In this document: piece by piece, positions 9,201-52,236 of the stretch
Layout: each line of letters opens with the position of its first letter
Numbering within the stretch: position 1 is the stretch's first letter
Source of the DNA: Nitrospirota bacterium
GTDB taxonomy: Bacteria; Nitrospirota; JACRHJ01
Assembly: GCA_963733375.1 (NCBI GenBank)
Contig: CAVTDB010000003.1
Coordinates: forward strand, 32,001 to 96,000
Length of the DNA: 64,000 bases
Reading direction: 5' to 3'
The notes under the pieces: model-generated
Database searches by the model: none
What the model was told of the DNA's origin: nothing
What the model saw: only the letters and a program-made list of their open reading frames with translations
Made by a program: the position numbers and the translations under genes

Positions 9201-9354
9201 CAGATTATGGGTACAGACGTCATCGGCGGGATGCTGGCGGCAACCGGCATCGCCATATTCTTAATCCCGATGATGTTCTATGTAATTGAGAAATTCAGCG
9301 AACGCGGGAAGAAAGTAACGCCGCCGAAATCCGGATGGGCAAGGACATGCGTAA
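6208..9354 (+). CDS. HAE1-family RND efflux permease, AcrB-like (split by frameshifts)
   Basis: [38 protein letters not shown] and [12 protein letters not shown] across ORFs 6208-8094, 8099-8653 and 8643 onward. End is approximate. Confidence 0.92.
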
Positions 9355-26800: not shown

Positions 26801-27923
26801 ATATCGGTATTATAGACGCGTATGAACCCCATCTCGGGCGCATAAGATAACGACTGGTTGAAGACTAATCCGCCCACTTCGAAATCCCGTACAATTTTCC
26901 GCCTTTGGCCTTTTTTAAATTCGGCAATCACCGAAGGCCAATCTTTTAATAGCGGATGCCTGCCTGTTTCCAGGAATTCAGGGAAAGCCTTCTTCGCGGC
27001 GGAGTTTACGTATGTAATATTCCCTTCGATATCAGTCTTGATAATGAAGTTTGGGTTCAGTTCGGGAAATGACGCCAGATGGGCAACCCGCTCCTCCGCC
27101 CGCTTGCGCTCGGTGATATTATCAAAGACGGCCACGAAGTATTCTTTTGCCGGGCTGTAAACCGAGATGGAAAACCATATTCCCAAAGATCTTACTTCAG
27201 TTTCGAACCTCTCTGGCTGGCCCGTCAACGCGACGCGGCCGTAAATCTCGAATAACTCCGGATTCGATTCTCTTACCCCCGGAATGACCTCGGTCACTTT
27301 TTTACCGATTACGTTTTTCAGGCCGGTCAATTTTCCGAATGCGCTATTGACGTCGAGATAGACGAAATCTTCCGGACGGCCTGCTCATCATAAAGCATCC
27401 TGCAATATGCGAAGCCGTCCAACATGTTTTCAAAAAGCGACCGATAATGCTCCTCGCTTGCGCGTACTGCCTCCTCCGCCCGTTTGCGCTCGGCCTCCGC
27501 CCTGTGTTTTTCCGTTACGTCGTGGAATACGATGACTACCCCGATGGTAATCGCCGCCGGAGTCGCGGATGGGCGCTGCGCTGTCTTCGATGGGGATCTT
27601 TTTCCGCCCCGTCTTTCCTTATCAGGGTAGCAGCTATGGTTGGCCAGACCTACGACATGGCCTTCGCGCAGGACGCGTTCCACCGGGTTCTCGGTGAGCT
27701 TCTGCGTTTCTGCTCATTGATGATATGGAAAACCTTTTCGAGCGGCTGGCCTTCAGCCTCGGCGGATTTCCAGCCCGTCGCCCTCTCTGCGACCGGGTTC
27801 AGGAAACGTGACGTGGCCTTCCCTGTCCGCCGCGATTACTGTGTCACCTATACTTTCAAGGGTTACGCTGAGCCATTCGCGCTGCTGCCTGAGCTGTTCG
27901 GCGGCTTCCTTGTCTCTCATCAT
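23832..27923 (-). CDS. Large multi-PAS + GAF hybrid histidine kinase with C-terminal REC (about 6 frameshifted pieces)
   Basis: Several PAS/PAC domains, GAF with CMCGNVI, H-box LAGGIAHDLNN, FTTKFMGRGLGLS and REC ILVVDDE...MDLIMP. Confidence 0.85.
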
Positions 27924-34238: not shown

Positions 34239-34282
34239 TCTATAATGACGTATGATTTTACGGGTTATAAGAGAGGAAACCG

Positions 34283-34750
34283 ATGACAAGGAACGCTGAA
34301 TTAAAAAGGATACTGCTTGCGGACGACAACCCTAACGATGTCGAGCTGACGCTTGAGGCGCTCGAACAATATAACCTGGCAAACGAGGTCATGGTGGTAA
34401 AGGACGGGGCCGACGCGCTCGATTACCTTTACAGGCGCGGGGCGTACGATGAGCGCACGGGCGGCGATCCGGCGGTTATACTGCTGGACCTGAAGATGCC
34501 CAAAGTGGACGGGCTGGAGGTGCTTCGGCAGATAAAATCGGACCCGGCTCTTAAATGCGTCCCGGTCGTCGTCCTGACCTCCTCCCACGAGGAGAGGGAC
34601 CTGGTTGACAGCTACAACCTGGGCACGAACGCATACGTGGTAAAGCCCGTGGACTTCAAGGACTTCGTAGAGGCGATAAAGGGCCTGGGCTCCTTCTGGG
34701 CGGTATTGAACGAGCCTCCGGCGGGATGCGTCAGAAGAGAGAAAAGCTAA
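34283..34750 (+). CDS. Single-domain response regulator (Rcp1-like)
   Basis: ILLADDN, LLDLKMPKVDGLEVL, VVVLTSS and YVVKPV. Confidence 0.92.
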   Translation: MTRNAELKRILLADDNPNDVELTLEALEQYNLANEVMVVKDGADALDYLYRRGAYDERTGGDPAVILLDLKMPKVDGLEVLRQIKSDPALKCVPVVVLTSSHEERDLVDSYNLGTNAYVVKPVDFKDFVEAIKGLGSFWAVLNEPPAGCVRREKS

Positions 34751-34751
34751 A

Positions 34752-36353
34752 ATGGCACATAAGCATCAGCTTCGCATACTCCATCTGGAAGACAACCCGC
34801 TCGATGCCGAGCTGGTTGCCGCCGCGTTTGATACCGCCGGCCTGAAATGCGGGATAACCCGTGTCGAGACGGAGCAGGCATTCACCTCCGCCCTGGAATC
34901 AGGCGGCATGGATTTAATCCTGGCCGATTACTCCCTGCCTTCTTTCGACGGCGTTTCCGCCCTGAAACTCGCGCATGAAAAATGCCCGGACATACCTTAT
35001 ATCTTCGTTTCCGGCCAGATGGGCGAGGACATCGCCGTGGAGTCGCTTAAGCTGGGGGCGACGGATTATATCCTTAAGAACAACCTGAGCAGGCTAATGC
35101 CATCGGTGCGCCGCGCCCTAAATGAGGCGCTGGACAGGCGCGAGCGAAAGAAGGCGGAGGAAAAGACTGCCGCGGCGGAGAAGGCGCTCTGGGAATCGGA
35201 AGCGAGGATGCAGAAGCTGGAAAGCCTCAGAGCCCTTGCCGGGGGCATAGCCCACGACCTGAATAACCTGATGGTGGCCGTGGATGCGAACGCGGGGCTG
35301 GCGCTTAAGGCGTTAGCTCCCGACTCTCCCGCGCGCGAGCTGATAGAGGGCATCGAGAAGGCGGTCGCCAAGGTATCCACTTTCTCGAAGCAGATAATGA
35401 GCTTTACGGGAAAGTTCGAGGCGATGAAGGAGCCGGTCAGCTTGAACGAGGCTGTGGAGGACACGTCTCATTTCCTGCTCGCGTCCATTTCGAAGGACGC
35501 CGCACTTGAATTCCGCCTCTCGGACGGCCTTCCGGTCATCATGGCCGACCCGCAGAACATCCAGCAGGTGGTTATGAACCTGATTTTAAACGCCTCCGAC
35601 GCCCTTGAGAAAAGAAAAGGGAAGATCGAGGTCTGCACCGGGAAGCTCTTTGCTGAGCGTCCATACCTGGACTCGATGCACTTGGGGAAGGACCTGGCTG
35701 AGGGAGAGTATTTGTTCATAGAAGTCTCCGACAGCGGCTGCGGCATGGACGAAGAGACAAAGGGGCGGGTATTCGACCCGTTTTATACCACGAAGTTCAC
35801 GGGCCGCGGGCTTGGGCTCTCCGCCGTTTTCGGGATAGTAAAAGGGCATGGCGGGGCGATTGGCCTGACGAGCGCGAAGGGGCGCGGCACGAGTTTCAAG
35901 GTACTCCTTCCGATACCGGAAGAGCCTTTGCAGGCCGGAGTCGAAAAGCAGGAATCAAAGGACGTCTGGTCCGGGGGCGGGACTATACTTGTAGTGGACG
36001 ACGACGAAAGCGTCCGCATGCTTACCAAAAAAGTCCTGGAGACCGCAGGCTATAAAGTACTCACCGCCCCCGACGGACAGCAGGGGATTGAAATTTTCAG
36101 GCAGAGCGGCGAATCGATATCTTTAGTCCTGATAGACCTGATAATGCCGCAGATGCGGGGCGACGAAGCGGCAAAGGAGATGCGGAAATTAAAAGACGGT
36201 ATAAAAATTTTATTCCTCAGCGGGTATAGCGACCTCCAACTGGCGGACATGGCCGATGGGCCCGGTAAGGCGGCGATTATGATGAAGCCATACAAGGTGA
36301 CAAAGCTGCTTCAAAAAGTTCAGGAGGTCCTGGAGCAGAATGTCCGTCAATAG
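34752..36353 (+). CDS. REC-HisKA-HATPase-REC hybrid kinase
   Basis: ILHLED...ADYSLP, GIAHDLNN, YTTKFTGRGLGLS and ILVVDDD...IDLIMP. Confidence 0.92.
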   Translation: MAHKHQLRILHLEDNPLDAELVAAAFDTAGLKCGITRVETEQAFTSALESGGMDLILADYSLPSFDGVSALKLAHEKCPDIPYIFVSGQMGEDIAVESLKLGATDYILKNNLSRLMPSVRRALNEALDRRERKKAEEKTAAAEKALWESEARMQKLESLRALAGGIAHDLNNLMVAVDANAGLALKALAPDSPARELIEGIEKAVAKVSTFSKQIMSFTGKFEAMKEPVSLNEAVEDTSHFLLASISKDAALEFRLSDGLPVIMADPQNIQQVVMNLILNASDALEKRKGKIEVCTGKLFAERPYLDSMHLGKDLAEGEYLFIEVSDSGCGMDEETKGRVFDPFYTTKFTGRGLGLSAVFGIVKGHGGAIGLTSAKGRGTSFKVLLPIPEEPLQAGVEKQESKDVWSGGGTILVVDDDESVRMLTKKVLETAGYKVLTAPDGQQGIEIFRQSGESISLVLIDLIMPQMRGDEAAKEMRKLKDGIKILFLSGYSDLQLADMADGPGKAAIMMKPYKVTKLLQKVQEVLEQNVRQ

Positions 36354-36441: not shown

Positions 36442-39400
36442 TCACTGCTTCTTTTTAAACAGGCTTTCATCCATCTTGACCCTCAGCCTGAAGTACGGCC
36501 CCTGCCCCCAATAGCTGTCCTGTTTCAGGTCCGCGTCGAACCGGTCGAAGGAGTATCCCAACGAGAACCAGAGGTTTTTTATCACCCTGTAGCCCACCTC
36601 GGCGGAACCGCCGTGCAGGAGCGAGCCGGCTTCCGCATTGTTCATCAGCCTGTACTCAAGCCCGACATCCACGCGGTCCGTCAGGTCGTAGAGCATACCC
36701 ACCCCCGCGAGTTGCGTATACGAGCTGATGCCGCCGTCGCCCGTCAGCTTGCCGGCATATTTACCGGTGAGCTGCAGTCTCCTGGAAGCCTGCATGCACC
36801 ACTCCGTCGATGTGATTAACGACAACGTCCTCAGGCTGTCGGTAAGTGAAGAGTTATCGTCGTACTTGTATTCCAGTTTTAAAAAGCCGTCCAGCCTGTC
36901 GTCATCGACCGGCCTGTAGGCTCCGCTCACGGAAGTGCGGTTAGTGGTACGTTTGCCGCCGGTGCCGATATCTTCCCTGCTGAAACGCTCCTGGAACAGA
37001 AGGGTCATCGATTGGGCCAGCCTGTACGCCGTGCCTTGTTCTATCAGGTAACTGTCGTTACCCGTGGCGGCAAGCTCGTGCCTGTACTCGACCCTTCCGG
37101 TCGCCTTCAGGTCTTCCCTGATCAGGTACTCGAGCCCGGCTGTGGCGGCTACGGCGTCCGCCTGGGACTGTATCTGGGGCCCGCTTAAGGTCCTTAAGTA
37201 TTCTACCGACGTACTCCCGTTCAGCTTATCGGTAAGCTTGAAGGTATTCTTCAGGCCTATGACCTGCTGGTTCCTGCTGCCGTCCGCCCCGTCGTCCAGG
37301 CGGTACTCGCTGTATCCGCTGACGCCCTTCATCAACTGCGTCTCCGCGCCGACGACGGTCCTGGCCTGGCCCTGTATTTCGGTCTTCAGGTATTCCTCGC
37401 GCACGTATAACTTGCTTATATCGCTCAGTTGATATTTCAGCCCGGCCGACGTTGTCAAAGTCCTTGCCGCTCACGATGTCCTGCTTGTGGGTGACGTCCA
37501 GGTCCAGCTTCGGGAAAAGCTGGGCACTCAATGTGATCCCAAGACCGGCGAACTTTTGCCAGACGTACGGACTGCTGTCGAACGGCAGGCGGCTGTTCGG
37601 GTCCGTGGGCGGGATGAACTTTGTATTGGAGGTCTCGCGCTCAAGCTCTAATGTGAGCTTGAACTTATTGAACTTCATCTCGGCCCCCAGGGAGACCAGG
37701 TTGTTGCTTGTCGCGTTAAGTTTGTCGTCGTCGCTGAAGGCCTTCATCCGGAAGACCACGCGCTCCCACGGCTCGTAACTCGCCTCCCCGCCGTACTTGG
37801 TCGCGCCACGGAAGACGTCGGTCGCGGAGGGGTTGTTGAAGCCGTCGTCGGCCTTGTGGTAGTAACCGGATATTTTAAAATCCTTAAAGGGAGTGGACAG
37901 GAGGTCCACCGCATAGGCCGAGCCCTGCCGCCTGGACAAGATGCCGTCTGTCGCCGCCATCATCGAATCCGTGCTGGCAAATTCCGCCTTCAGGTCTGTC
38001 TTGTACGGAAGCTTCAACTGCAAGTCCGCGCCTTCCAGGCGGTAATCCCCGCCGTCCTGTTCCTCCACGGCGCCGGTGACTCCGGCCTTGACCCAGGGAA
38101 GCGGACTCAATGTCGCGCGGCCTCCGTAGATATAGTGCTTCGCCCCGTCCTGTATGCTCTCGTATACCGCGATTATGTACACCGGGTTCAGGTCGGCGTC
38201 GTGGCTCGGGACCGGCGCCTTGAAGAGTATCGTGCCCATCTCGATGTCGAGATAATAATCGCTCCCGCGTGCAAGGGTCTGCCGGTCGAGTACGATATCC
38301 GGGCGCAGGCGGTCGCGCGTTTCTATGCTGATCTGCTCGGAGCCCTCGACTATCGGCGACTGGCTCAGGTAGTAGAACCCCGATATGCCGAGGCCCGGCA
38401 AGGCGTCAACGACCTGCGTCTGGTCCGTATAGCTCGCGAAGCCGCGCACCCTGAGCGAAGACATGGGGTTTATGTCGGCTTGAATCCCCGTAAGCGTCCG
38501 CTTATACGCGGCGAGCTTTACGTCGTCGAAACCGGTGTCGTAGTCTCCGTACAGCAGGTACGACCTGTCCTTCTCAAGCTTGACATATAACTTGTCGGCT
38601 GATTTTGCCTCGTACCCCAGCTTGCTCTCGTCGCCGTATATCTGGTATTTGTTGTCCGCCTGATAGTCCGTCGCCGCCGCGTTCTGCAGGTCCGGAGTTT
38701 TCTTCTTGCCCGAGTCGTACGCCGCCGTGACATATAGGTTGTCGAACAGGTTCCCCTTGAGGAAGAACGCGCCGCGCTCCTGCGAGAACGCGCCCTTGTC
38801 GAACCAGCCGTCCATGCTGAGCGGGCTGAACGCGCCTCCCGCGGAGCCGTAGCCCACCTTGATCTCGCCGACGCCCGCAATCATTACAGGACGCTTCGGC
38901 GGGGAGAAGAACACCTTGAACGTCTCGGTTATATCCTCGACGGAGACGCTGACCGTGGCCTCGCCACTCCCGCGGGGCGACAGGATGTCGAACTCGGCGC
39001 CCTTCTCGAAATACGGTATCTGCACGCCCCCCTGGGCCTGGTCCATGTCCTTCTGGACGACTTCTCCCCTGGTCGTCACGATGGTGATGAACGTGGACGG
39101 CCGCGCCGGTTGCCCCTTGGCGTCCCAGGCGGTGACGGTTACGTGGAGCTTCGACACTCCGTCGGCCGGGACGTCGCTCTCGTCCGGCTTGACCAGCAGT
39201 TTGGCCGGCTTGACGGGAGCCTCGACCGTTACCTCTTTTGTCTCCCGGATGTTCCCGAACGGGTCCTTGGTCTCGGCCTTGATGAGCGTCTTGCCGGTCT
39301 CGCCGACCTTGACCCCTATGTACTCGTATACCGTTACGTTATTTGCTTTGTCTACTATCGTCTCGCCGACCCTGTTATGGCCCACGGGCTCTCCGTTAAC

Positions 39401-41606
39401 AAAAAGGAGCGCTTCGCGGTCCGACGCCGCCTTCACGACCACCTTTACGGCGCCCTTCGTTATAACTTCGCCTTCTTTTGGAGACAGTATCTCAAGGGCG
39501 GTGGTGAAACCCTTTATCTGTTCAGCCATGCTTTCGTCCGCTTCGGGCTTGTCCGCCGCGGGGGCGGACCCGGCATTGTCATTTGTCCCGGCCCGTACCG
39601 CGTCCGCCGGCGCCGTAACTGCGAAATCCGCCCTGACCAGCCCGCTCGACTTCATGTCGATGAACTGCGAGCCGCCGTCGCCCATGGACCGGTTTGATGT
39701 CGGCACGAGCGCCGCGCCGCCGGGCAGGGACAACGTGTCTACCTTCAGGACGTGGGTGCCGGGGTCAACGTAGGGTATCGAGTACTTGCCGTCCTTGTCG
39801 GTTATCACCCTGGCTGCCATTCTCCAAGTAAAGGACCGCGCCGCCCAGGCCTTTCTCGCCCGCCTGCCGGAAACCGTCGCCGTTGCCGTCCAGGAACACC
39901 CTGCCTATTATCGTGCCTTTAGACGTGAATACGCCCTCGCTGATGGTCAGCTTGAACGATGCCCTCATGGATACGGAGGCGCCGGCGACGGCATAGGCGA
40001 CGTTAACGCCGTCGCCCTTCATGCTGTCCGGGCCGACGATGGCGCTGTAACGGAGCTCTACGGTTTTCCCCGCGGCCAGGTCGCCGATATGCCAGACGAG
40101 CGACTGGCCGTCCTGGCCCGGGTCCGCCGCCTTGACGCCGCCTATCAGTGTGGAGCCTTTGACATAGGGGACGTCATGCGGCATGCCGTCTCTGACCTGC
40201 ACGTCGTTTAGCGCGGTCTTGGCCGTTGTTAGTCACAGTGACCGTATAATGCACCACGTCGCCTATCGAGACAATGTTCTTGTCCGCCGTCTTGGTAATC
40301 CCCAGCGCTGTCCTGGGCGGGTCCACCGGTATGTCGAAGGTCACCGGGCTCATTCCGGCCGCCAGGGTAAAACTCTGGCCACGAGACCCGGCGCCAACCG
40401 TGTAGCCCGGCGGCAGCTTCGGCGTTGGCACTTTGGACGGGAATATGTAACTGCCGCCGGGCTCGACCTTGAGGCGGTAAGTCCCGGCATCCAGGTACTG
40501 GAACTGGAACTTCCCGTCTGCGCCTGTCGTGATCGGGTTTGACTGCGCCACAAGAAACGGCGTCAGGGGCAAGGCGGCCGGCAGGCCGGTACTTATCGTC
40601 TATGAGCGTCACGACCGCGCCCGCGACGGGCAGCCCGGTAGCCGTGTCGAAGACCGTGCCCAGAGGGTCCACGAACACATTGTCGTCATGTGAGGGGACG
40701 GCGTCGAGCGGGTCCGTGTATATAACCTCTATCGGCGTGTACGGCTGTATCGAGAGTATCCCGTCCCCTGTCAACGGGGGCCCGGAATTGGTCGGGAGGT
40801 TGCCTACGAACACGCCCGTGTTCGGGCCCGTTTCCTGGCACGTTACGGCCTCCTGGTCGTCAACGCTCCTGGAGCCGCCGGGCAGGACTGCGTAGTGGTA
40901 CACGGTGACGGTTATGGTGTCGATGGCCGCCGGGTCGATGTTTCGATCAGGGTCCGTCACTTTTATATATGAGATGTCGCCCAGGTTATAGCTGTAGACC
41001 CTGTTGTATGAGGAATCAGTAAAAATCACGACTCCCGGCGTCCGGGCCTTGACCGTCGTAGTCGCCGTCCGCGGTGCTGGCCGCGCCCTCGCTGCATGAG
41101 GCGTGCACGGTATCCGGTATGACAGTGTTGTTCGCCGCATGCTTGTCCACCGCCACCGTTAAATGCACGGTCGAGGAAGAGCCGGGAGCGAGGGCGCCAA
41201 CCGTCCACGCCACGGATCCGGAGGCGTATGCTCCACCAGAGTCCGCGCTGACAAAAGTCGTGCCCGACGGGAGCGTGTTCTTCAGAGTCACGGCGGAGAG
41301 CGGGTCACTGCCCGGGTTGCTGGCGTTGATGGTGTATTCTATGTTATCGCCGGCCCATACCACGTCCGCCGCCGATATTACTACATTTATGACGGGGGCG
41401 GTTACCGTCAGGCTGGCACTCGCGCCCTCCTGAGGCATGGCGACGTTCTTTTGCGTCTGGTAATCGCAGGTCGCGTTATTGACCACTTGAGCGGCTCGGG
41501 CCGGGGATGCGGCAAATGCCCACATGGAGGCGCAGGCGAATAACAGGAGGACGAAAATGCCCGCCTGCCGCCTTAAACTCTCCTGATATGCAGTTATTGC
41601 CGCCAT
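36442..41606 (-). CDS. Large outer-membrane protein: DUF11 and SdrD-B-like Ig domains plus C-terminal beta-barrel (about 6 frameshifted pieces)
   Basis: Signal peptide ending PARA; DUF11 motifs; GTIIGRVFLDGNGDG; GAFFLKG, AAYDS and LYVKLEK; long alternating beta-strand C-terminus ending GPYFRLRVKMDE. Confidence 0.75.
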
Positions 41607-41654
41607 TCTTCCTTTACCGCTGGTCCATTAGCCGTTCCCGCGGCAGTCAGCGAA

Positions 41655-42917
41655 TCAGTTGACTGTCGCGTCGAACGTCACTGCGGCAGTGGCGCCCGCG
41701 GCGATCGAGTTGATATTGACCTGTATAAGACTTCCGGCGGGGTTGGGCTGCGTGAGTCCGTTCAGCTTTAATGTCCCCGCCTTGTATGTGACAGGCAGTG
41801 CGTTTAAATCATCTTTTATGACGACGTTCCCCGCCGCGTCATTACCCGCATTCCGCGCGGTGATGGTATATGTAACGGTATCTCCGGGTTTGGCCGAGGC
41901 CGGGCTTACGGCCTTGGTAGTGCTTATCGCCGGCGAGAGGACGGTAATACTTACCGGCGCCGAATCAACCGGCGAAGCGCCGTCCGCGGCGGCTTCCGCC
42001 ACGTTGCTGGCGCCCGCTCCGCTCAGGCTGACCGCCTGGGCGTGGTTCGATGGCCTGTTGATATTGACGCTGAACACCAAAGTCGCGGTCGCGTTCGGGC
42101 CGAGAGTCCCGACGGGCGCCGTGATGACGTTACCGGACAGCAGGCTGTCGTTCTGCGCCACTGTGTTCAGCTTGATTGAGCCGCTTACGAACGTCGATAT
42201 CCCGAGGACGCTTCCTATGTTGTCGGTGACGGTGACGTTCGTCACGTCGGATGTCCCGGCGTTTCTTACCGTAATCGTGTAAGTAACGGCATCGCCGGGC
42301 GTGGGGTTGTTATTGCTTACCGACTTCGTTATCGTCAGTACCGACCCGCCGACTGTCGTCTGAGACTCCGGGGATACGCCAAGGACGGAAGTATTGCTGG
42401 TGGATGTGGCCCTGGCGTCGTCGTTTGAGCGCGTGTTTGCCGCCGCGCTCCCGGGTATGGGCAGCTTCATATACACCAGCATGGACCCGCCCGCGGCGAT
42501 AGGCCCGATCGGCGCGGTAATCAAAGACGACGCGCCCGGGTCGGAAAAGAACTGGACGGCGCCGGGGTTGAACGTGGATGCGCCCGCGTCGTGATCAGAT
42601 GACAGGGTGAACGAATCGGCGGCGTTGCCGGTGTTGGTTACCGTTACCGTATAAACCACGGATGCCCCGGCTGACCCGGAAAGCGTGGCCGGAGCAATCA
42701 GGACGCTCGCGCCCTGCTTTTGCAGTATGGTGACGTCTACCGACGCCGACACCAGCGGCATCGGGTTGCCGCCGCTGTCCCCGTAACTGACGTTGGCGGT
42801 GTTAACCAATGGCCCTGGCGGGGCGACCGCGGCCATCGCCGGGCAATAGCCCAGAAGCGTGGCCGTGAAGGCGGCCGCCAGTACCGTTAAAAGTTTCCTG
42901 ACTATTCTATTGCCCAT
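41655..42917 (-). CDS. Secreted DUF11 protein (putative minor or adaptor fibre subunit)
   Basis: Signal peptide, N-terminal LVNTANVSY, TITKSVS..GDAVTYTITVRN and TTKAVS..GDTVTYTITARN. Confidence 0.85.
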   Translation of the reverse strand: MGNRIVRKLLTVLAAAFTATLLGYCPAMAAVAPPGPLVNTANVSYGDSGGNPMPLVSASVDVTILQKQGASVLIAPATLSGSAGASVVYTVTVTNTGNAADSFTLSSDHDAGASTFNPGAVQFFSDPGASSLITAPIGPIAAGGSMLVYMKLPIPGSAAANTRSNDDARATSTSNTSVLGVSPESQTTVGGSVLTITKSVSNNNPTPGDAVTYTITVRNAGTSDVTNVTVTDNIGSVLGISTFVSGSIKLNTVAQNDSLLSGNVITAPVGTLGPNATATLVFSVNINRPSNHAQAVSLSGAGASNVAEAAADGASPVDSAPVSITVLSPAISTTKAVSPASAKPGDTVTYTITARNAGNDAAGNVVIKDDLNALPVTYKAGTLKLNGLTQPNPAGSLIQVNINSIAAGATAAVTFDATVN

Positions 42918-42997
42918 AAAAGCTCGGATTTGCCTCGTGCTCGGAATAGATAAGCCGGCCGGCGGCCCTTGGGCCGCCGACCGGCTTCCGACTCGAC

Positions 42998-44320
42998 TTA
43001 GTTCGCGTTTACCGTTACTCTGTAGAAGAACTCCGCTTTGCCGGTCAAGGCAGGAAGTGTGCCTCCGGTCACATTTCCGGATACGACGCCGGCAGCAAAA
43101 GTAGGCGCGCAGTTAAGCGGGTTTATAAATGGTACGCTATCCGCTCCCGCGCCATCAGACGCTTGCAATATTTTGCCGAACGTCACGAAGCCCGACAGCG
43201 TATCGGCGATAACCACTGCGTTTGCGACGTCGTGCCCGTTGTTGGTCACCGTAACGTGGTAGTTGATCGTGCCGTTGGGGAGGGCGGAGGACACGTCGGC
43301 GGTTTTCGTCACTGCCAGCAAAGGCGCGTCGACTGTCACCACAACTGCGGGCGTGTCAAACTGCGGCTCCGGAGTCGTATCGGTGCCGGACTTGTAATTG
43401 ATGGACGCGACGTTAGATAATGTCGTACCGTCCACTATTCCCGGGGTCGTGTTTTTGATCTTGCCGGTTATGGTGATGTCGGTCTCGCCATTAGTCGAGC
43501 CGGCCTTGGCAGCCACCGTTTGAGCGCTGGACGTGAATACGTTGCCGGAAAACGTCCCATAGGTGCTGGCGAGCGTGTCGATGTCGGCGGGAATCGTGTC
43601 CGTTACGACCACGCCGGTAGCGCCTACCGTGCCCGAGTTGATGAGCTTTATGGTGTAGGTGATGGCCTGGTTAGCCTTGTAGTGCAGTCCGGCCTGGTCC
43701 ACCCCCTTGGTAGAGCCGGTGAGGTTGGCCGAGTCGGTGGTCGTGGTCAGCGTGGTGGTATCGAAGACCGGGGCGACCGTTCCGCCCGTCGCGTCCTTCG
43801 TGTTGGTGGTGGACGTGGCTTTAATGGCTTCCGTGTTGCTCGTCGGGGCTACGGCGTCCGGGATAACGATATGCACCCAAATCTTCTGACTCCCGCCCGC
43901 CGCGATCACGTCCGTGGTGGAGCCTGCAAGGACTGTGGACGTTTCGGTGCCGCTTCCGTTGTCACGGTAGAACGTAAACGTAGTCGGGGTCCATGCGCCA
44001 CCCGAGGTATTGGACATAGTGAAGCTGTCCGACGCGTTACCGACGTTATTGACAGTTACCGCGTAGTCCACCGTGCCCAGGTTGTTGCTGAGTATCGTGG
44101 ACGGGGACGGGGTGAGGGTCACGCCGTAGAGATAGGTCACGGACACGGTAACCGAGGCGGTCACCGGAGTCATGGCGTTGGCATTTACGTCATTGTAAGT
44201 CGCTGAAACTGTATTCGTGATATTACGGCTGAAGGTCGCGGTTGCCGCGAAGGCGTTGCCTATGGCGAATAACGCCATTATGCAGGCGATGGACAGAGTG
44301 ATCGAAATCTTCTTAAACAT
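42998..44320 (-). CDS. Secreted DUF11 protein (putative major fibre subunit)
   Basis: Signal peptide ending AFA, ITNTVSATY, STKGVD..YTIKLIN..DTIP and VTKTAD..YHVTVTN..DTL; AAGGAG RBS. Confidence 0.85.
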   Translation of the reverse strand: MFKKISITLSIACIMALFAIGNAFAATATFSRNITNTVSATYNDVNANAMTPVTASVTVSVTYLYGVTLTPSPSTILSNNLGTVDYAVTVNNVGNASDSFTMSNTSGGAWTPTTFTFYRDNGSGTETSTVLAGSTTDVIAAGGSQKIWVHIVIPDAVAPTSNTEAIKATSTTNTKDATGGTVAPVFDTTTLTTTTDSANLTGSTKGVDQAGLHYKANQAITYTIKLINSGTVGATGVVVTDTIPADIDTLASTYGTFSGNVFTSSAQTVAAKAGSTNGETDITITGKIKNTTPGIVDGTTLSNVASINYKSGTDTTPEPQFDTPAVVVTVDAPLLAVTKTADVSSALPNGTINYHVTVTNNGHDVANAVVIADTLSGFVTFGKILQASDGAGADSVPFINPLNCAPTFAAGVVSGNVTGGTLPALTGKAEFFYRVTVNAN

Positions 44321-44404
44321 GATTTTCTCCTTTTTTCTGTTGAACTTCGGTTAACTCGTTTTAAACCAAAAAACTAACCCAATCCTGATGTGTCACCTCC
44401 TTTA

Positions 44405-44924
44405 CTACTTAACCTTTACTTTGAAATTTACATGCCCGGACTCGCCGGGCTGGACATCCTTCTTTACGGTCCACTGAACCTGCGTGTACGCCTCGGCCGG
44501 GGCGGCCTTTTCCACAACCTTGCCGGACTTATCCTTCTGCTTGACCATCACCGGCGGCTTTTGGTACGTCTTGCCGCCGTCAACGCTGAATGCTATCTCG
44601 GTATTGCCGCCTTCAGCGCTCCCAGGCACGTATGCCGTGTTCTCCGGGACAGGGTCGATTATCTTCGCGTCCCTGGCAACGCTTTGACCCTCGTTTTTAT
44701 ACGTTATGGAATACACTACGGTGTCGCCCGCAACGACCTTCCCGGCGGGCACCAACGTTACGACCTCCTTGCCGTTCTTGCTTGTCTTCACCTCCTTTGC
44801 CATAGAAATAGTGAGTTTCAACTTTGGCCCCTGAGCGGCCGCCCAGGCGGATATGCCCGTTAACATGAATACCGCGGCGACTGACCAATATCGCCGCCTT
44901 TACCGTTCTGCCTGAAATACTCAT
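44405..44924 (-). CDS. Small single-domain periplasmic DUF11-like protein (putative chaperone; frameshift in signal peptide)
   Basis: AWA cleavage motif, GDTVVYSITYKNEG, IIDPVPENTAYVPGSA, FSVDGGKTY and YTQVQW. Confidence 0.8.
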
Positions 44925-45071
44925 TTCATCCCCTCCATTGTTATGATTGTCATCACTAAAGCCCGCCTATGCCCGTTTTCTGCTTTCGGGCCTCCCCGGC
45001 ATGCGTCACGCGGTTTGTGCAGTACCGTCTTTTCAGGTTTGACTATAAATATCATTTGTCGCCTCCCTCCG

Positions 45072-48000
45072 TCAGTTAGGGTTGATAGTTACTTGTAAAT
45101 AGACTTTGCCCTCGCCGCCCGGCGCCAGGGTGCCGCTAACGATGAACACCGCGCTACCCCCGGACAGGTTGTCCGAGACCGGCGTTGCGGTGGCGTAGGT
45201 CGAGCTTGCGTTCCCGGCCCTCATGCTCCCGGTAACATACGACGTGTAGGTAGGGATATTGTCGGTTATGATTATTAAAGCGGCGTCGCCCGTGCCGTCG
45301 TTTTTGTAGTCTACCGTGTACGTAAGCGTGTCACCCGGTTTGGGCGTGGGCTTGTCTACCGTTTTTGTCAGCGTTATGTGCGGGTTCGTTACCGTAACCC
45401 CCGCAGTGCCGCCGGTGGATTGGACGGGGTATCCGGTCGGCGTGAACGATGCGTTATTGAGATACGTGCCGGATGCCGCAGCCGCCGTGGACTGGAAATT
45501 AAGCGTCAATGCGCCGGTCGCGGGAAGCGTCCATGAGCCGCTCCAGGTAATCGTTCCGGTCGTACCGGCAGGGTTGGCCGTCGTCATGCCCGTGGTCGTG
45601 CCCGTCCGGTATGAGAACCCGGCGGGGAGCGTGTCCGTGACGCTTGTGACCGGTATGCTCAAAGGTCCTGTGTTCGTCATGGTGATCGTGTAGCTTACCG
45701 TCCCTGCCGCCGTGGTAGTGGACGGGGACGCGCTTTTGGTTATGCCGAGCGCAAAAACGGTCACGGGCGCGGTGTCTCCGGTGGGGTAAGTCGTCTGCCC
45801 GCTAACCGTCCATGTAGCGTTATTGTAATATGTGCCCGTTGTCGGGCCTGCATATGCGTGGAAGACGAGCGTCAGCGAGCCGCCGTTCCTGCCGATAGCC
45901 CAGTTCCCGCTCCACGTAAGCACCTGGCCGGCCACGGCCGGGTTGTTAGTCGTCGTGCCCGTGGTCGAACCGCTTATGTAAGAGAACCCGGCCGGCAGCG
46001 TATCTACAACTCTTGTGACGGTCCTGTTGTTCCCGCTGTTGTTTGTCATCGTGATGGTATAGACCACCTCTCCGCCGGGCAGTACCGCCGAAGGGCTGAC
46101 GGTCTTGTTTATGTCATAGGTGGAGACGATGACCGGCGCCGTATTGGAGATAGTCTGCACCCCGCAGCCCGTCGCCGTGAATGTCGCAGTGGGGTTGTTA
46201 TACGTACCGTTCGTGTTGTTCACGGTGACATCGAAATTGAGCGTTAAGGTGCCGTTGGCGGGCAGAGTCCAGGAGCCGTTCCATGTAAGCGTTCCGGTCG
46301 TCCCGGTCGGGTTGTTCGTCGTCATGCCGTCGGTCGTGCCGCTGACATACGTGAAATTGCCTCCGGTCGAGTTGAGCGTATCCGTCACCCGTGTGACGGG
46401 TATGTCAGACGGGCCTGTGTTTGACAGCGTAATCGTGTAGGTTACCGTCCCGGCGTGGGCGACCTCGCCCGGAGCCACCGTCTCGGATATGCCCAGGTGG
46501 AAGACCGTAACAGGCGCGGTATCCCCGGTTGACTGGACCGGATAGCCGGTCGGGGTGAAAGAAGCGTTGTTGTTATACGTGCCATCCGTACCGCTCGCCG
46601 TGGCGGAGAAGTTAAGCGTCAGCGTGCCGCCGTTCGCGGGCAGCGTCCATGAACCGTTCCATGTAAGCGCCTGGCCGGCCACGGCCGGGTTGGCGGTCGT
46701 CATGCCGGTGGTCGTGCCCGCATTGTAGGAGAACCCCGCCGGGAGCGTATCCGTTACGCTTGTGACCGGTATCGACGCGCTGCTCGGGTTTGTCATCGTG
46801 ATGGTATAGGATGCGGTCCCGCCGGCAATGACCGAGGCTGAGGCCGCGGTCTTGGCTATGTTTAAATGAAAAACCGTAACGGGGGCGGTCGGGCCCGTGG
46901 TAGTGTCCGGATATCCGGTGGCGGAAAACGACGCGTTGTTGTTATACGTGCCGTCGGTAGAGCTCGCCGCGGACTGGAAGTTGAGCGTGAGGGTTCCGTT
47001 CGCGGGCAGCGTCCAGCTTCCGTTCCACGTGAGCGTCTGCCCGGCCACGGCCGGGTTGGCCGTCGTCATGCCGGTCGTCGTGCCCGTCTTGTATGAAAAG
47101 CCCGCCGGGAGGGTATCTACCACGCTTGTAACTGTCGTGGCGGAGCCGCTGTAGCTGGTCAGGGTCATCGTATAGCCTACGGTACCGCCCGCTATGACCG
47201 CTGACTGGCTCGCGGTCTTTGCCATTTTTAGGGTAAATACGCTGACAGGCGCGGTCGGTCCTGTGGAGGTGCTGGGGTATCCGGTGGCTGCGTAAGATGC
47301 GGTGTTGGTGAAAGTCCCCACGGACGAGCCCGCGGCGGACTGGAAGTTGAGCGTGAGGGTGCCGTTCGCGGGCAGCGTCCAGCTTCCGTTCCACGTGAGC
47401 GTCTGTCCGGCCACGGCCGGGTTGGCCGTCGTCATGCCGGTAGTCGTGCCCGTCTTGTAGGAAAAGCCCGCCGGGAGGGTATCTACCACGCTTGTGACAG
47501 TTGTGGCGGAACTGCTGACGCTGGTCATTGTAACCGTGTATGTTACCGTCCCGCCGGTCTGGACAGTGGACGGGGTTACCGTCTTAGCCGCCGAGAGGTT
47601 AAGTATCGCGTCGGTATCCGTGGCGGTGTTGTTTGTCAGGACCGGGTCCGTAGTGTTGTACGGGGGATTGACCGTGACGGAATTCACGATTGTCGGGCTG
47701 CCTCCCTGTACGGTCCCTTGCAGCGTCAGCACCGCACTCTGCCCGGAGGCGAGGTTGATCCCGCTCCAGTACTGCGTCGTGCCGTTGTATATGCCCCTGT
47801 CCGGGCTGAAGACCGGGCTCTGGAGGTTTGCCGGGATTGTGTCCCTTACCCAGCAGCTCGATATGCTGCTCGGCCCGTTGTTGGTGACTGTTATGATATA
47901 GGTGGCCGCGCTTCCGGGCAGAGCCGTCGTCTGGTTGTCGGTCATTGCGATTGACAGGTCCGCCTGGGGGGTGAGGGCGTCGCTGTCAGTGGCCGCGTTG

Positions 48001-50297
48001 TTCGCTGAATTGGTGTCCGTAATTCCCGGCGGCGGCGTTACGGTCGCGGTAACAGAGAGCGTCCCCGTGGCCGCCGGGTCTATGGTACCCGCAATGGTAA
48101 GGGTAACGTGCTGCCCTGACGCGAGGCTCAGGCCGGTCCACGCGCCGGTGCCCGAGTTGTACGCCCCGGTCGAAGCCGTATATAAAGGGGACTGTACCGA
48201 AGTTGGCAGGGGAACACTCAGCGTAAGGCTCGTAACGGCGCCCGGCCCGTTGTTGGTGACCGTGACGGTATAGCTGTCGGCGTTGCCTGGTATGATGCTC
48301 GTCACGCCGTCCGTTATTGCTACGCCGAGGTCCGCGTTGACGGGAGATGTGCTTCCGATTGCCTGCACGGAAGGGTCCGTCCCGGCGGTGCCGTTGGGAT
48401 AGATGGTGGCCGTGTTGGTTATCGGCAGGGAGGCGGTCGGGCACGTCGATTTGAAAACGACCGTGACCGTATCGCCGGCATTGACCACGCCCGATGCCCT
48501 GCCCGGGCCGTTTATCAGCCGGCCCGGGGTCGAAAAAGGCATGTTCCCGCCCACGTCGGCGACGGCGCCGCCGTTCATTTTCGTGGACCCGGCTACATAT
48601 GCCGTGCCGGCGGGTATGCCGTCAAGAAGCCACGACCCGGCAGTGTTCGTCAGGCCGGTATTTGAAGCCGTTATGGTCCATGTGATAGTCGCCGTGCCGC
48701 CGACGGTGCTCACGCTCGCGGTCTTGGCGGTATCGAGCCTGTCTACCAGCGTCGCGGTCGTGTAGTTGGAGGTCGTGGTAGCCTGGAGAGGAGCTGACAG
48801 AGCAGTTGGTTAAAAAATTGTACGTCCAGCTCGAATTGGTGACATAAGACGCAGCCGCGGGCGAGGGCGGCACCGCATTAACCGCTGCCTGGTACTGGAC
48901 CCACAACTGGGCGCCCACGGCGATGCCGCCGATATTGAAGCCGGCGGATGGGTTTGCGCCGGACAATGTGGTATAGGTGACGCCGTCCGTGCTGGTTTTC
49001 GCGGTCCCAGGGATGAACGATGTATACGGCGGCGGGACTGATGTATATATCACGTTTTGCGCGCTTGTCGAGCCGGCGGTGTTGTCGAGCCTTGTAGTGT
49101 ATGTCAGGGTATCGCCCACATGGGTCGTTGTCTTGTCGACGGTCATGACGGTTGTGGGGAAAGTTGGCGCGCCGACGTCCACCTGTATTCCGATGGAGCT
49201 TATGGTGTACGCGTCCTGGTTTGAAGTACCCTGGGCGCTGGCCTCGGTCTGACCGTGCTGGAGTATGCCGGAGACGTCAACGTTTGTTATGTCCCAGCCA
49301 TGACGCGTCCCATTTGTGGCCGCGCCGCTGCCAGTGGTGGTGGTAGGTGTGTCGTTCAGGCTGCCGAACGTCCCGGACGTATCGACGGTGCCGTTGTCCT
49401 TGTTTATCTGGCTTGCGAAGAAGTTGCTCGCAAGGTTGTTCGGTCCGGATACCGGCTGCATGGCGCCGACCGGCCCGAAAAGCATCTGGTCGCCAGCGAT
49501 GAACGAGTCGCCCTCCATGGCGCTTACCATCAGGCGGGCGTTTATAGTGCCGGCGCTGTTCACGCAGAAGCCGCTCACCGCGTATCGCGGAGGAGTACCC
49601 GCTCGCCGCGTGAACTCGCAGCCGACGAATACAGACATGCTCCTTATCGGCAGGGTGGTGTTCCTGTAGACCACCGCGAGCGTCCAGCCCGCGCAGTTGC
49701 TGTTGTTTTCATTCGGGTCGCTCGTCGCTGGGACGCCGCCCACGGTGTATGTCCCGGCGCCGGCTGACTGCACGTAGGCGGTCACGTCCGCCGAAGCCGA
49801 CATAGTAGTATTGGCCTCCGGTATCCCCGGTACGTCTTTTGCCGTCGCGGCATCAGGCGCGACTGAATAAGTGCCGGAGGGTGTCGCCATCGTTACGCTG
49901 CTGTCCAGCGACGACGACACGTTCTGGTTTGCGGTCTGCATAACAGCCGCCCCAGATAAGCTCGGCGTAAAGGATGGTGCTCCCCGCCGGTATGTTGAGC
50001 TGCGCTGCTGACGAGTTCTGGGACCACGTGAGTGTCGTCCCGGCCGGATAATGTGCCGACCTGTGAAGAAGGGTTGGTGGTTATGAATGCGCCTATGGCG
50101 CCCGCCGCTCCAGGGTTGTTCTGGTTCGCTATCTTGTCGAGACCGAGCGTGTTGCCGGTAAAGGTCATTGCGCCCGTGTCGACCGCCGTGAAACGCGTGA
50201 TATATGAGGCATGCGCCGGGACCGCGAGACAAAGGACCGCCATCGCCGCAAAGCATATCGCCGTAATGGCCGTGACTAAAACTTTTGACTTTCGCAT
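45072..50297 (-). CDS. Large DUF11-repeat adhesin, about 1740 aa (frameshifted into 3 or more ORFs)
   Basis: Signal peptide ending AHA, N-terminal head (TFTGNT, AGWTLAVVY, EGD, GWDI), about 11 Thr-rich DUF11 domains. Confidence 0.85.
45390..47600 (-). repeat. Six tandem repeats of about 360 bp / 120 aa (DUF11)
   Basis: Recurrent DTLPAGFSY..GTTTGMTTANPAVAGQTLTWNGSWTLPANGTLTLNF; DNA at about 46970-47130 and 47330-47490 is near-identical. Confidence 0.85.
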
Positions 50298-50308
50298 ACT
50301 TTTAATCT

Positions 50309-50530
50309 CTATACGCAGGAGTTAAACCGCTTGATCCGGTCGTCCAGCCAGAACTCTTCCGCCTGTGCCAGACGTGCAAAGTCCAGCGACCCTACGATAT
50401 GGCGTTCCGCATCGGTTAAGTCATACCCCTCTTCGATGCAGACCGCGTCCAATTCACGTGAAGCCCTTTCACGAAAACTAGCATCGGTAACAAGGCGCCC
50501 GATGAACTGCTCTACTGCTTTTTGAGACAT
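50309..50530 (-). CDS. Os1348-family / NHLP-clan small protein
   Basis: MSQKAVEQFIGRLVTDASFR...GYDLTDAE resembles nitrile-hydratase-leader-like proteins; GAGG RBS. Confidence 0.75.
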   Translation of the reverse strand: MSQKAVEQFIGRLVTDASFRERASRELDAVCIEEGYDLTDAERHIVGSLDFARLAQAEEFWLDDRIKRFNSCV

Positions 50531-50604: not shown

Positions 50605-50621
50605 AGCAAGAGTCGTGCCAA
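50605..50621 (-). promoter_or_regulatory. sigma54 (-24/-12) promoter
   Basis: Minus strand TTGGCACGACTCTTGCT matches the TGGCACG-N4-TTGCW consensus, about 75 bp upstream of the operon start. Confidence 0.88.
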
Positions 50622-50847: not shown

Positions 50848-52236
50848 CTAATTATCTTTTTCCATTGACGTTTTTTTCCGGTTGAACATCTTCCGGTTAA
50901 TCTTCAGACGCTGTGCGGCAAGCGACTTGTTGCCGTCGCAGCTTTTCAGCGTCTCCTCCAAAACCCGGTTTACCACGGCTTCGAGAGAAAGCTCGCCTTC
51001 ATTAAATTTGAGATGGAAGTCCACGCCGCCATCCGATGCGGCCTTGTTGTCTTTATAAATTACGAGGTGCTCCGGGCGGACCAGTTCTCCGTTTACAAGG
51101 ATAGCGGCCCGCTCCAGACAGTTTCGCAGTTCCCGTATATTTCCGGGCCAATCATATGCCATGATCACTTCCATGGCCTTGCGGGATATTCCGGGAAGGT
51201 CCTTTCCCTGGTGTTGGCGGAATTGGGGCAAAAATTGCTCCACGAATAACAGGATGTCTTCCTTCCGTTCTCTGAGAGGCGGGATAACGATGGGGAAGAC
51301 ATTCAACCGGTGGAACAGGTCTTCCCTGAATTTTCCCTGCCGGACAAGGGCTTCAAGGTCCCGGTGGGTTGCCGCGATTACGCGGAAGCCAACCGGCAGC
51401 AGCCGGTCGGAGCCGATTTTATAATAGACGCGCTCCTCAAGGACCCTGAGGAGCTTGACCTGGAGGGGAAGCGGCATGTCGCCTATCTCGTCTAACAGCA
51501 TGGTGCCGCCATCGGCCAGCGCGAACTTGCCGTCCCTGTCCCTGTCGGCCCCGGTGAAGGCTCCCCTGACATGGCCGAAAAGCTCGCTTTCCAGGAGGGT
51601 TTCGGGGACCGCCGCGCAATTGACCGCCACGAAATTGGACGGCATGCCGCCGCTCGCAAAATGGATGTCCCGCGCCAGGACCTCCTTTCCAACTCCGCTT
51701 TCGCCGTAGATGGCAACGGTGGTACGCGGCGAGGCCGCCACCATTTCAGCGGCTTTCAACGCCTCGCTCATAGCCGGGGAATGGGTCATTATAGACTGGA
51801 AAAGGTGGCGGCTTACCACATATTCCTTGAACTTCTTATTCGAGCTGTTCTCTATCGTCAGACGGCCAAATTCCAGCGCCCGTTTTATTACCACGTCCAG
51901 TTCGTCGCGGGAAGCAATCCTTTTTCAGGTAATCGAATGCGCCGCTCTTCATGGCTTTGACGGCTGTCTCCACGTCGCCCTGGGCGGTAAAGATAATAAA
52001 CGGCGTATCGGATCCTTTTTCGCCCGTAAAACGCGAGCAGCTCCAGTCCGTCCATCCCCGGCATAACGAGGTCGGAGATAATAAGCTGGTAAGGCTATCC
52101 TTCTCCAAGGAGTGCAATTGCTTTTTCCGCGGAGCGCGCCAGGGTAATCTCGTACCCAAGGTCACTCAACTGGCTCTTCAATAATCTGGCGCTGGCTGGC
52201 GTTGTCTTCCACGATGAGGATGCGGGCGGCGGTCAT
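50848..52236 (-). CDS. NtrC-family sigma54-dependent response regulator (frameshifted)
   Basis: REC start RILIVED, GESGVGKE, ESELFGHVRGAFTGA, LLDEIG, WPGNIREL and Fis-type HTH. Confidence 0.92.

Follow-up and report, generated by a model that had tools for sequence, protein, structure and literature searches.

A putative operon for a modular surface fiber based on split DUF11/CLIPPER domains in Nitrospirota

Related Systems and the Proposed Fiber

DUF11/CLIPPER domains (PF01345) are CnaA-like immunoglobulin (Ig) folds with an intramolecular isopeptide bond, as described from the crystal structure of a Gram-negative adhesin (PDB 9IFR; Protein Sci 2025, PMC12617251). In that paper the term "donor strand" is absent, and intermolecular bonds are mentioned in general terms only. 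The locus described here lies in a 64,000-nucleotide stretch (the window; contig C3, positions 32001–96000) of a metagenome-assembled genome (MAG) of a soil member of the Nitrospirota (2.39 Mb in 26 contigs, 81% complete), and all 19 of the genome's Pfam matches to DUF11 are confined to it. It encodes, on the minus strand, a putative adhesin (the tip protein), a small secreted protein, two shaft proteins (P440 and P420), and an outer-membrane (OM) protein with a giant C-terminal beta-barrel; genes were called from a listing of open reading frames (ORFs) and a three-frame reading. We put at roughly 70% the probability that these genes, under sigma-54 control, specify a modular surface fiber whose subunits are joined head to tail, each split DUF11/CLIPPER domain being completed by a two-strand donor hairpin from the next subunit, and locked by Lys-Asn bonds. 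The observations are the anatomy of the proteins, its conservation, the outcome of a docking prediction, and the covariation of the catalytic residues.

The original prediction, made from the sequence of the window, had likened the fold to CnaB; DUF11 is classed as CnaA-like (PMC12617251). The proteins of the window share with CLIPPER the Pfam family, the Lys-Asp-Asn triad and its spacing in complete internal domains, and the occurrence in fibrillar-adhesin stalks of Gram-negative bacteria. In CLIPPER, however, the triad lies in one chain and stabilizes the domain, whereas here the terminal domain is split over two chains and the same chemistry would ligate proteins.

Chaperone-usher pili have an acceptor-only tip (FimH), rods that are both donor and acceptor, a donor-type terminator, and a large OM barrel. 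In type 1 and P pili this tip, rod, and terminator logic is non-covalent (PMC13721041). The proposed fiber resembles them in that an incomplete Ig fold is predicted to be filled by an N-terminal segment from the subunit that follows; they differ in their single non-covalent strand, PapD-like chaperone, and 24-strand usher, whereas the proposed fiber would use a hairpin of two strands as donor, with a predicted covalent lock, and has its last donor on the barrel protein. With the sortase-assembled pilins BcpA, SpaD, and GBS80 there is likeness in domain fold (Z 10.4–13.2), in the tip-shaft-base plan, and in predicted covalent Lys-based links; unlike those pili, the present system has no sortase and no LPXTG motif, its bond is predicted to form autocatalytically within the completed domain, and its host is a diderm.

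The archaeal thread of Saci_0406 combines an N-terminal donor strand and an intermolecular isopeptide with Sec export, no sortase, and a putative donor-only cap (Nat Commun 2022, PMC9715654). The modules of the window would likewise be Sec-exported and complemented head to tail, with a predicted isopeptide, no sortase, and a donor-only end. The thread differs in donating one strand, in linking the side chain of Asn57 with the alpha-amine of Asp24 in subunit n+2 (a non-canonical bond), and in having no Pfam domain, no outer membrane, and no barrel anchor (PMC9715654). In Clostridium perfringens the TasA-family protein BsaA assembles by "donor-strand exchange and lock," an N-terminal segment entering the sheet of the next monomer; the bond arises from an Asn-Glu-Lys triad whose residues come from different chains, and mutants lose oligomers (bioRxiv 2024.11.04.621531, PMC11580942). 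BsaA differs in its TasA/camelysin fold, Gram-positive host, SipW signal peptidase, single strand, and lack of an OM component. Pfam searches with the subunits of the window gave only DUF11-related Ig families, and by this measure the likeness to BsaA and to the thread is one of mechanism only. The split isopeptide Ig domain of SpyTag/SpyCatcher, in which a tag strand and a catcher (holding the Lys and the catalytic acid) ligate spontaneously (PMC6539128), was engineered from CnaB2 and forms a Lys-Asp bond, whereas here the split is natural and CnaA-like, the predicted bond is Lys-Asn, and the tag has two strands.

Literature searches found no published account of a split DUF11/CLIPPER domain, of a natural isopeptide-Ig split in diderms, of this operon, or of its barrel family; the supplement of a 2025 survey on signature-less DUF11 might bear on this. 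The intramolecular DUF11 isopeptide is already known (2025); the elements not met with in print are the split and its intermolecular use. If the proposal is right, diderms would build covalent surface stalks with no sortase, PapD-like chaperone, or usher, an intramolecular isopeptide chemistry would have been reused between proteins, and a new giant-barrel OM protein would join the known secretion and anchoring machines. The locus would then also supply orthogonal tag/catcher pairs of natural origin for ligating proteins and would explain abundant "DUF11 domain-containing" and "OmpA family" annotations, and a triad-free clade (Geobacter-type, see below) would serve as a natural control for the role of the bond.

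Split Domains and Their Conservation

All four secreted DUF11 proteins (tip, small, P440, and P420) end right after strand E, with the Lys and Asp retained. In a MAFFT alignment of 19 domains, the C-terminal domains match the internal ones through this strand (LNFQSAA, VYLQVTIN, or LQFDVTVN) and then stop (for example, terminal WTLPANGTLTLNFQSAA versus internal GTLAPGGEGKVYLQVTIN), whereas internal DUF11 domains have about 30–40 more residues, with an Asn strand (GTYNNNASF, ITNTANIQF) and then a last strand (TAPVTVF). Strands F and G, a two-strand hairpin, are therefore missing from the terminal domains, as had been predicted for three of the proteins. No C-terminal domain holds an Asn strand and a last strand in the same chain, which marks these domains as split members of DUF11/CLIPPER. 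A home-made hidden Markov model (HMM) of the DUF11 core places the core end at the protein C-terminus for tip, small, and shaft proteins alike, both in the window and in four close relatives (G001, G002, G006, and G008); its last positions are fuzzy and ran into strand F for tip-type repeats, so domain ends were re-derived from the MAFFT alignment. Among 150 giant DUF11 proteins taken as a control, four end within 5 residues of the last core, and those four resemble contig-end fragments.

The tip protein (45072–50297) consists of a signal peptide, a head of about 500 residues, and at least ten DUF11 domains, and finishes at 45072 with ITLTKTVD...IIITDNIP...YLQVTINPN and a stop codon; by alignment, its acceptor domain (45075–45377; K1117 and D1151 of a 1,213-residue ORF) ends after strand E and has no Asn strand. 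The small protein (44405–44924) has a signal peptide and one truncated DUF11 domain, its start being regained by deleting an inserted base at 44884. P440 (440 residues, 42998–44320) comprises a signal peptide, a donor hairpin, a CARDB-like domain (D1), a complete DUF11 domain (D2; K205/D241/N303), and a truncated one (D3; residues 335–440, 43001–43318 by alignment; K339/D373), with the end AVTKTAD...VIADTL...FFYRVTVNAN and a stop. P420 (420 residues, 41655–42917) has the same layout, with K335/D369 in its D3 and the end STTKAVS...IKDDL...TFDATVN and a stop; it also matches TIGR04226, "isopeptide-forming domain-containing fimbrial protein" (47.1 bits). Scores against PF01345 are 366 bits for the tip protein (10 stretches), 98.7 for P420, 53.2 for P440, 31.2 for the small protein, and 60.9 for the N-terminus of the OM protein (cut-off 24.6).

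Hairpins of the missing kind stand right behind the signal peptides of P440 (ITNTVSATY..TPVTASVTV; residues 33–61, 44138–44224, with Asn36 and Tyr42 in invariant alignment columns), P420 (LVNTANVSY..PLVSASVDV; residues 36–64, 42726–42812, Asn39), and the OM protein (VVNNATCDY..ASASLTV; residues 40–69, 41400–41489, Asn43). They share the pattern [IVL]-x-N-x-[AV]-x-x-x-[YF], a loop, and a hydrophobic-alternating strand. The three hairpins are thus where the original prediction had put them, and every string that it quoted is present on the minus strand. A motif defined after the data had been seen, [IVL].N.[AV].[AVLITC].[YF], occurs 30 times in the 1.2 million residues of six-frame ORFs of the genome, and four of these occurrences fall in this locus (one internal hairpin besides the three N-terminal ones). 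Two motif-bearing ORFs on contig 26 appear to be unrelated proteins of a pseudopilin locus and were set aside.

The two halves also occur apart. The tip and small proteins have a groove and no hairpin, and the internal DUF11 domains of the OM protein carry Asn hairpins of their own, so that its N-terminal hairpin is surplus, with no matching incomplete domain in the same chain; in the OM proteins of G006 and G008, the first DUF11 domain is gone and the hairpin is kept directly behind the signal peptide. Such orphan halves can be completed only between chains, not in cis. By anatomy, the tip protein is acceptor-only, the shafts are donor and acceptor, and the OM protein is donor-only, roles that had been assigned correctly; the fourth secreted protein (44405–44924), also acceptor-only, had been missed.

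Across nine shaft proteins (27–84% identical) the invariant residues include N36 and Y42 of the hairpin, K205/D241/N303 of D2, and K339/D373 of D3, which has no Asn. Complete internal domains thus hold the Lys-Asp-Asn triad within one domain; the Lys-to-Asp spacing is 34–36 and the Lys-to-Asn spacing 98, close to K715/D748/N806 of PDB 9IFR (PMC12617251). An AF2 model of the shaft D2 (pLDDT 73) matched the middle domains of the sortase pilins BcpA (Z 13.2, root-mean-square deviation [rmsd] 2.4, 120 residues aligned), SpaD (Z 11.3), EbpB, and GBS80. At the sequence level, phmmer against PDB sequences gave no match at E ≤ 0.01 for P440 and only chance-level matches when the C-terminal 575 residues of the tip protein served as query.

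The order 73-residue ORF, tip, small, shaft, OM is kept in G001, G002, G006, and G008, and the order tip, small, shaft, OM recurs, with a barrel of 40% identity, in a Lentisphaerae MAG. In seven distant Nitrospirota loci, one to three shaft-like genes and the small protein, sometimes with a large tip protein, lie upstream of the OM gene. Conservation of the gene order, which the original prediction had proposed as a check, is therefore found in four close and seven distant Nitrospirota and in one locus of another phylum. The ORFs of the distant loci all end in the strand-E motif; for 11 of 21 the HMM places the end of the core no more than 3 residues from the terminus, and for the remaining 10 its local alignment broke off early. 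Of 17 shaft hairpins that could be read, 16 have the Asn and one has Ser; the acceptor Asp is found in 27 of 27 and the acceptor Lys in 19 of the 20 acceptors aligned there (Gln in the other), seven lying outside the 118-residue stretch compared. The small protein occurs in 13 of 13 loci of this Asn type, with the Lys in 6 and the Asp in 8; this lack of conservation sets it apart from the structural acceptors.

A word-based homolog search with P440 gave 14 proteins, 3 of them clear orthologs. A profile of the shaft alignment run against 1.84 billion representatives had 62,305 matches at E ≤ 0.001, and the 150 listed were all giant multi-repeat DUF11 proteins; this profile was uninformative for the split architecture, and the OM barrel was used as the marker instead. 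The barrel family comprises 361 clusters at E ≤ 1e-5, annotated as Nitrospirota, Syntrophales, Thermodesulfobacteriota, Geomonas, and Oligosphaeraceae (Lentisphaerota); of 301 Nitrospirota genomes sampled, 55 contain it. Among the 120 family proteins listed, a signal-peptide-like start is seen in 105, of which 82 match the strict hairpin motif (80 with Asn, 2 with His); most of the remaining 23 show, by eye, a looser G-T-x-I-x-N/S/H. Barrels of loci L018–L021 are 74–82% identical to that of the window, versus about 30% for shafts of the same genomes, which indicates that the exposed modules evolve far faster than the membrane platform.

In the mechanism that we propose, Sec would export the modules. 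Each would end in a DUF11 domain with strands A–E (Lys on A, and the catalytic Asp) and without F and G, and the next, cell-proximal module would start, right behind its signal peptide, with F and G, the Asn being on F. Insertion of this hairpin would complete the fold, with the first domain of the donor stacked on the acceptor as in a tandem-repeat adhesin; since insertion would unite Lys, Asp, and Asn, an autocatalytic Lys-Asn isopeptide could lock the joint. With an acceptor-only tip, shafts that are donor and acceptor, and a donor-only OM protein, the chain of tip, shaft(s), and OM anchor would be a pseudo-continuous polypeptide, N-terminus distal and C-terminus in the barrel, much like one giant adhesin with N-terminal passenger and C-terminal barrel cut at the boundaries between strands E and F. 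More speculatively, the chain may grow at its base, because the proximal end would always expose an empty groove; the giant barrel may be the export conduit, and the hairpin of the OM protein itself may end and anchor the chain. We can only guess that the small protein caps hairpins reversibly, as a chaperone or as an alternative cap. Whether the shaft polymerizes (more than one copy per fiber) or is present once per fiber is at about even odds.

Predicted Docking, the Triad, and Other Readings

Trans docking was modeled as a competition in which full-length mature P440, with its own hairpin and groove, was folded three times together with a second, isolated D3. The hairpin entered the partner D3 in all three runs although the cis D3 was present, with ipSAE values of 0.81, 0.81, and 0.85 (best of three controls, 0.00). 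Of solved complexes, 58 of 80 attain this pass mark, and of mismatched pairs, 2 of 110. At least 93% of contacts were common to the runs, and the partner pLDDT was at least 90. The predicted interface is formed by hairpin residues 32–63 and D1 loops (95–98, 141, and 172–175) on one side and by D3 residues 332–349 (with K339), 364–376 (with D373), and 437–440 on the other. Hairpin strand 1 (34–43) is predicted to run antiparallel to 366–371, which leads to D373, strand 2 (53–59) to pair with the A strand (335–346) that holds K339, and the D1 loops to contact the partner as a next tandem domain would. Anatomy and trans docking thus predict that the incomplete Ig fold receives its missing strands from the start of the following subunit. 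Complex prediction had been suggested for each hairpin with each C-terminal domain; it was run for this one pair, and the P440 hairpin is predicted to dock on D3 at the K339 and D373 segments.

Further evidence comes from a scan of metagenomes with six His-type OM proteins, which gave 33 loci (L065–L097). These Geobacter-type loci (for example, L066:5540–9127) have one tip-like acceptor protein without hairpin directly before the OM gene, and the split is kept. Their OM hairpins read G-[ST]-V-I-x-H in 9 of 9, with His at the Asn position. Glu replaces the Lys in 11 of 11 partners, and the place of the Asp is taken by Ser in six of them, by Asn in three, and by Ala and Thr in one each. The Geobacter-type OM protein has a C-terminal OmpA domain. 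Donor Asn and acceptor Lys and Asp are therefore all present or all absent, as a shared catalytic triad predicts; this joint loss is suggestive and not a statistic, and the two-gene variant is, to judge from its residues, probably a non-covalent version. Completion in trans by an N-terminal Asn hairpin, the core of the original prediction, is accordingly supported by conservation, orphan halves, the P440–D3 complex prediction, and covariation.

Several points weigh against the fiber as proposed. A profile of 18 internal F-G segments of the relatives, run against six-frame ORFs of the genome, left all three N-terminal hairpins unmatched at E ≤ 10, while it matched internal hairpins of the tip protein of the window, five at E < 1e-3; the profile is dominated by tip-type repeats and includes strand E, and the link between N-terminal and internal hairpins accordingly rests on motif, position, conservation, and fold prediction. 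The modeled pairing is F with C and G with A of the Ig sandwich, so that the docking pass may reflect likeness to intact CnaA-like domains and can stem from intact Ig domains that the model has learned. Since close cousins of true partners pass as well, the docking score does not show specificity or homopolymerization. The covariation is essentially that of one clade and so probably one evolutionary event; an L057 acceptor has Gln for Lys although its donors keep Asn, and the shaft L059_7974 has Ser for the hairpin Asn. The Lys-Asn bond at the joint and the fiber itself are computational predictions. Pfam scans of the locus proteins and of intact OM orthologs found no PapD-like chaperone or PF00577 usher, and no chaperone or usher family was recognized for the passage of folded modules across the outer membrane.

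Other arrangements of the same parts deserve consideration. The shaft's own hairpin might fill its own C-terminal domain, giving separate monomeric surface proteins; pilin self-complementation is known for FimA (PMC6615685), and the AF2 monomer gives the hairpin a pLDDT of about 80. We regard such closure in cis as very improbable, since the tip, small, and OM proteins each hold one half only, the hairpin was placed in trans in three of three runs with the cis groove open, and the linker from hairpin to D1 appears from the sequence to be about 5 residues, so that reaching D3 would need a three-domain ring. The modules could also interlock in trans as in chaperone-usher pili, with no isopeptide and the triad kept for fold stability. 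Complementation can evidently work triad-free, given that the Geobacter-type clade lacks all three residues and keeps the split, and the N35A mutant of BsaA still gives SDS-stable oligomers until heated (PMC11580942); nevertheless, Lys, Asp, and Asn are near-invariant in Asn-type systems at the bond positions of the solved CLIPPER domain and are lost jointly, not singly, which makes a purely non-covalent joint rather unlikely. A closer contender, at somewhat less than even odds, keeps the trans lock and makes it joint-specific, giving an adhesin of fixed length with one tip, one copy per shaft paralog, and one OM anchor. The gene order equals the proposed chain order, loci have one to three shaft paralogs as if length were genetically set, Geobacter-type loci hold only tip and OM protein, and giant single-chain DUF11 filaments are fixed-length stalks of the same domain (bioRxiv 10.1101/2025.08.19.671072). 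Shaft-on-shaft addition, in turn, is favored by the homotypic docking of the P440 hairpin with P440 D3 (0.81 versus 0.00 in the control, with the reservation that cousins of true partners pass) and by the core pattern shared by the three hairpins of the window, which makes cross-fitting plausible, and no sequence feature blocks it. There is a real chance that the fiber has a distinct assembly pathway. The fuller version, a widespread class of diderm fibers that polymerize by hairpins with a Lys-Asn lock, are exported through and covalently anchored to a single-chain barrel of about 36 strands, and use the small protein as a reverse chaperone capping donor hairpins in the periplasm, is a tentative suggestion that we consider doubtful.

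That the locus has decayed, the tip and OM genes being pseudogenes and the split pattern a relic, is scarcely credible. The window does contain three frame breaks in the tip gene (four frame segments) and five in the OM gene (six segments), which the original prediction had overlooked; the tip junctions lie near 50053–55, 49916–26, and 48736–88 (tblastn with the G001 tip protein). The relatives, however, have single intact OM ORFs (1,607–1,751 residues), and one intact ortholog (P0240, 1,733 residues, 83–89% identical) spans all six OM segments. Contigs of four other public runs were compared, and in three of them, from three studies (X1, X2, and X4), bases of the window are omitted: contigs are one base shorter at 37453/37456, 39815/39816, 40222/40223, and 40591/40593, that is, at four of the five OM junctions, and base 44884 is omitted in X1 and X4, which regains the signal peptide of the small protein. 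The rows listed in this comparison cover these four junctions and 44884, and neither the remaining OM junction nor any of the three in the tip gene. The breaks are therefore attributed to one-base insertion errors of assembly, and we read the tip and OM genes as intact in nature. Other genes of the window, at 6208–10772 (plus strand) and 24678–27330 (minus strand), also appear broken by indels: an AcrB-family ORF (8643–9533) covers just positions 806–1021 of its profile, and an OEP/TolC-like gene and a PAS kinase show up as overlapping ORFs on one strand, a frequent pattern in the window, all of which fits an error-prone assembly.

Membrane Anchor, Regulation, and Neighboring Genes

The OM protein (36442–41606, about 1,730 residues) has a signal peptide, the donor hairpin, DUF11, CarboxypepD_reg, DUF11, SdrD_B, and Big_1-like Ig domains, and a giant beta-barrel (approximately 36445–38860, mapped via P0240); in intact orthologs the same series, with an Invasin_D3/Big_1-like domain, is followed by about 830 residues without a family. 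An AF2 model of the G002 ortholog (50 homologs; pLDDT 82.8, pTM 0.76) shows an invasin/intimin-like Ig domain and then about 35–40 strands. Best coverage is that of the 36-strand SprA translocon (Z 15.0, 615 residues aligned, rmsd 12.5), followed by FimD (Z 13.5, rmsd 13.3, 364 aligned; the level of any barrel) and SlpA (Z 13.2), and SlpA complexes are the top Foldseek hits (E 1.9e-10, TM 0.25); as model-based matches, these suggest a very large barrel and nothing more specific. Some family members have an extra C-terminal OmpA domain, which indicates that the C-terminus is periplasmic. In Pfam the OM protein matches no autotransporter family; passenger and barrel are ordered as in autotransporters, with about 35–40 strands versus 12–16. 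For residues 900–1738 of the G002 OM protein (P0165), the nearest ESM Atlas clusters are unnamed "outer membrane proteins" of about 850 residues, mostly from Pseudomonadota (0.96–0.97; a lead only), and the giant barrel may also exist without an Ig passenger.

No sortase domain (PF04203) was found in the genome, at 81% completeness, which agrees with the sortase-free assembly originally predicted, and the operon proteins have no LPXTG tails, their ends reading VTVN and a stop. For the head of the G001 tip protein (L020:11883–15266, residues 45–385) Pfam gave no family; the Atlas clusters closest to it are unnamed "cell surface proteins" of Bacillota (0.96–0.97), with weak DUF3344 hits, all of them leads only.

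The locus had been taken to extend from 36442 to 50530. Its OM end stands, whereas 50530 is the start of a separate 73-residue ORF (50312–50530, minus strand) and the tip gene begins at about 50297. This first ORF has no signal peptide and resembles Frankia_peptide (PF14407, 45.3 bits, cut-off 48) and, weakly, Nif11; it is also found upstream of the tip gene in the four relatives and in L057. A match to TGGCACGACTCTTGCT, which we take to be the sigma-54 promoter consensus, lies upstream of the operon (50605–50620, minus strand) and is the only one without mismatch in the 64 kb; the consensus is likewise upstream of the operon in four of four close relatives. Directly upstream is a gene for a sigma-54-dependent activator (50848–51894, minus strand; Pfam Sigma54_activat, E 8.5e-64), which neighbors the operon in the same four relatives and is likely its regulator, judging by position and family. 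The activator ORF (348 residues, GTG start) has no receiver domain and probably contains a 5' frame error, its counterparts in the relatives having 457–459 residues. The adjoining region on the downstream side of the OM gene (32586–36353, plus strand) encodes a PAS histidine kinase and a hybrid kinase/receiver, together with a response regulator of a single domain. In G006 and G008, too, the gene after that for the OM protein is kinase-like.

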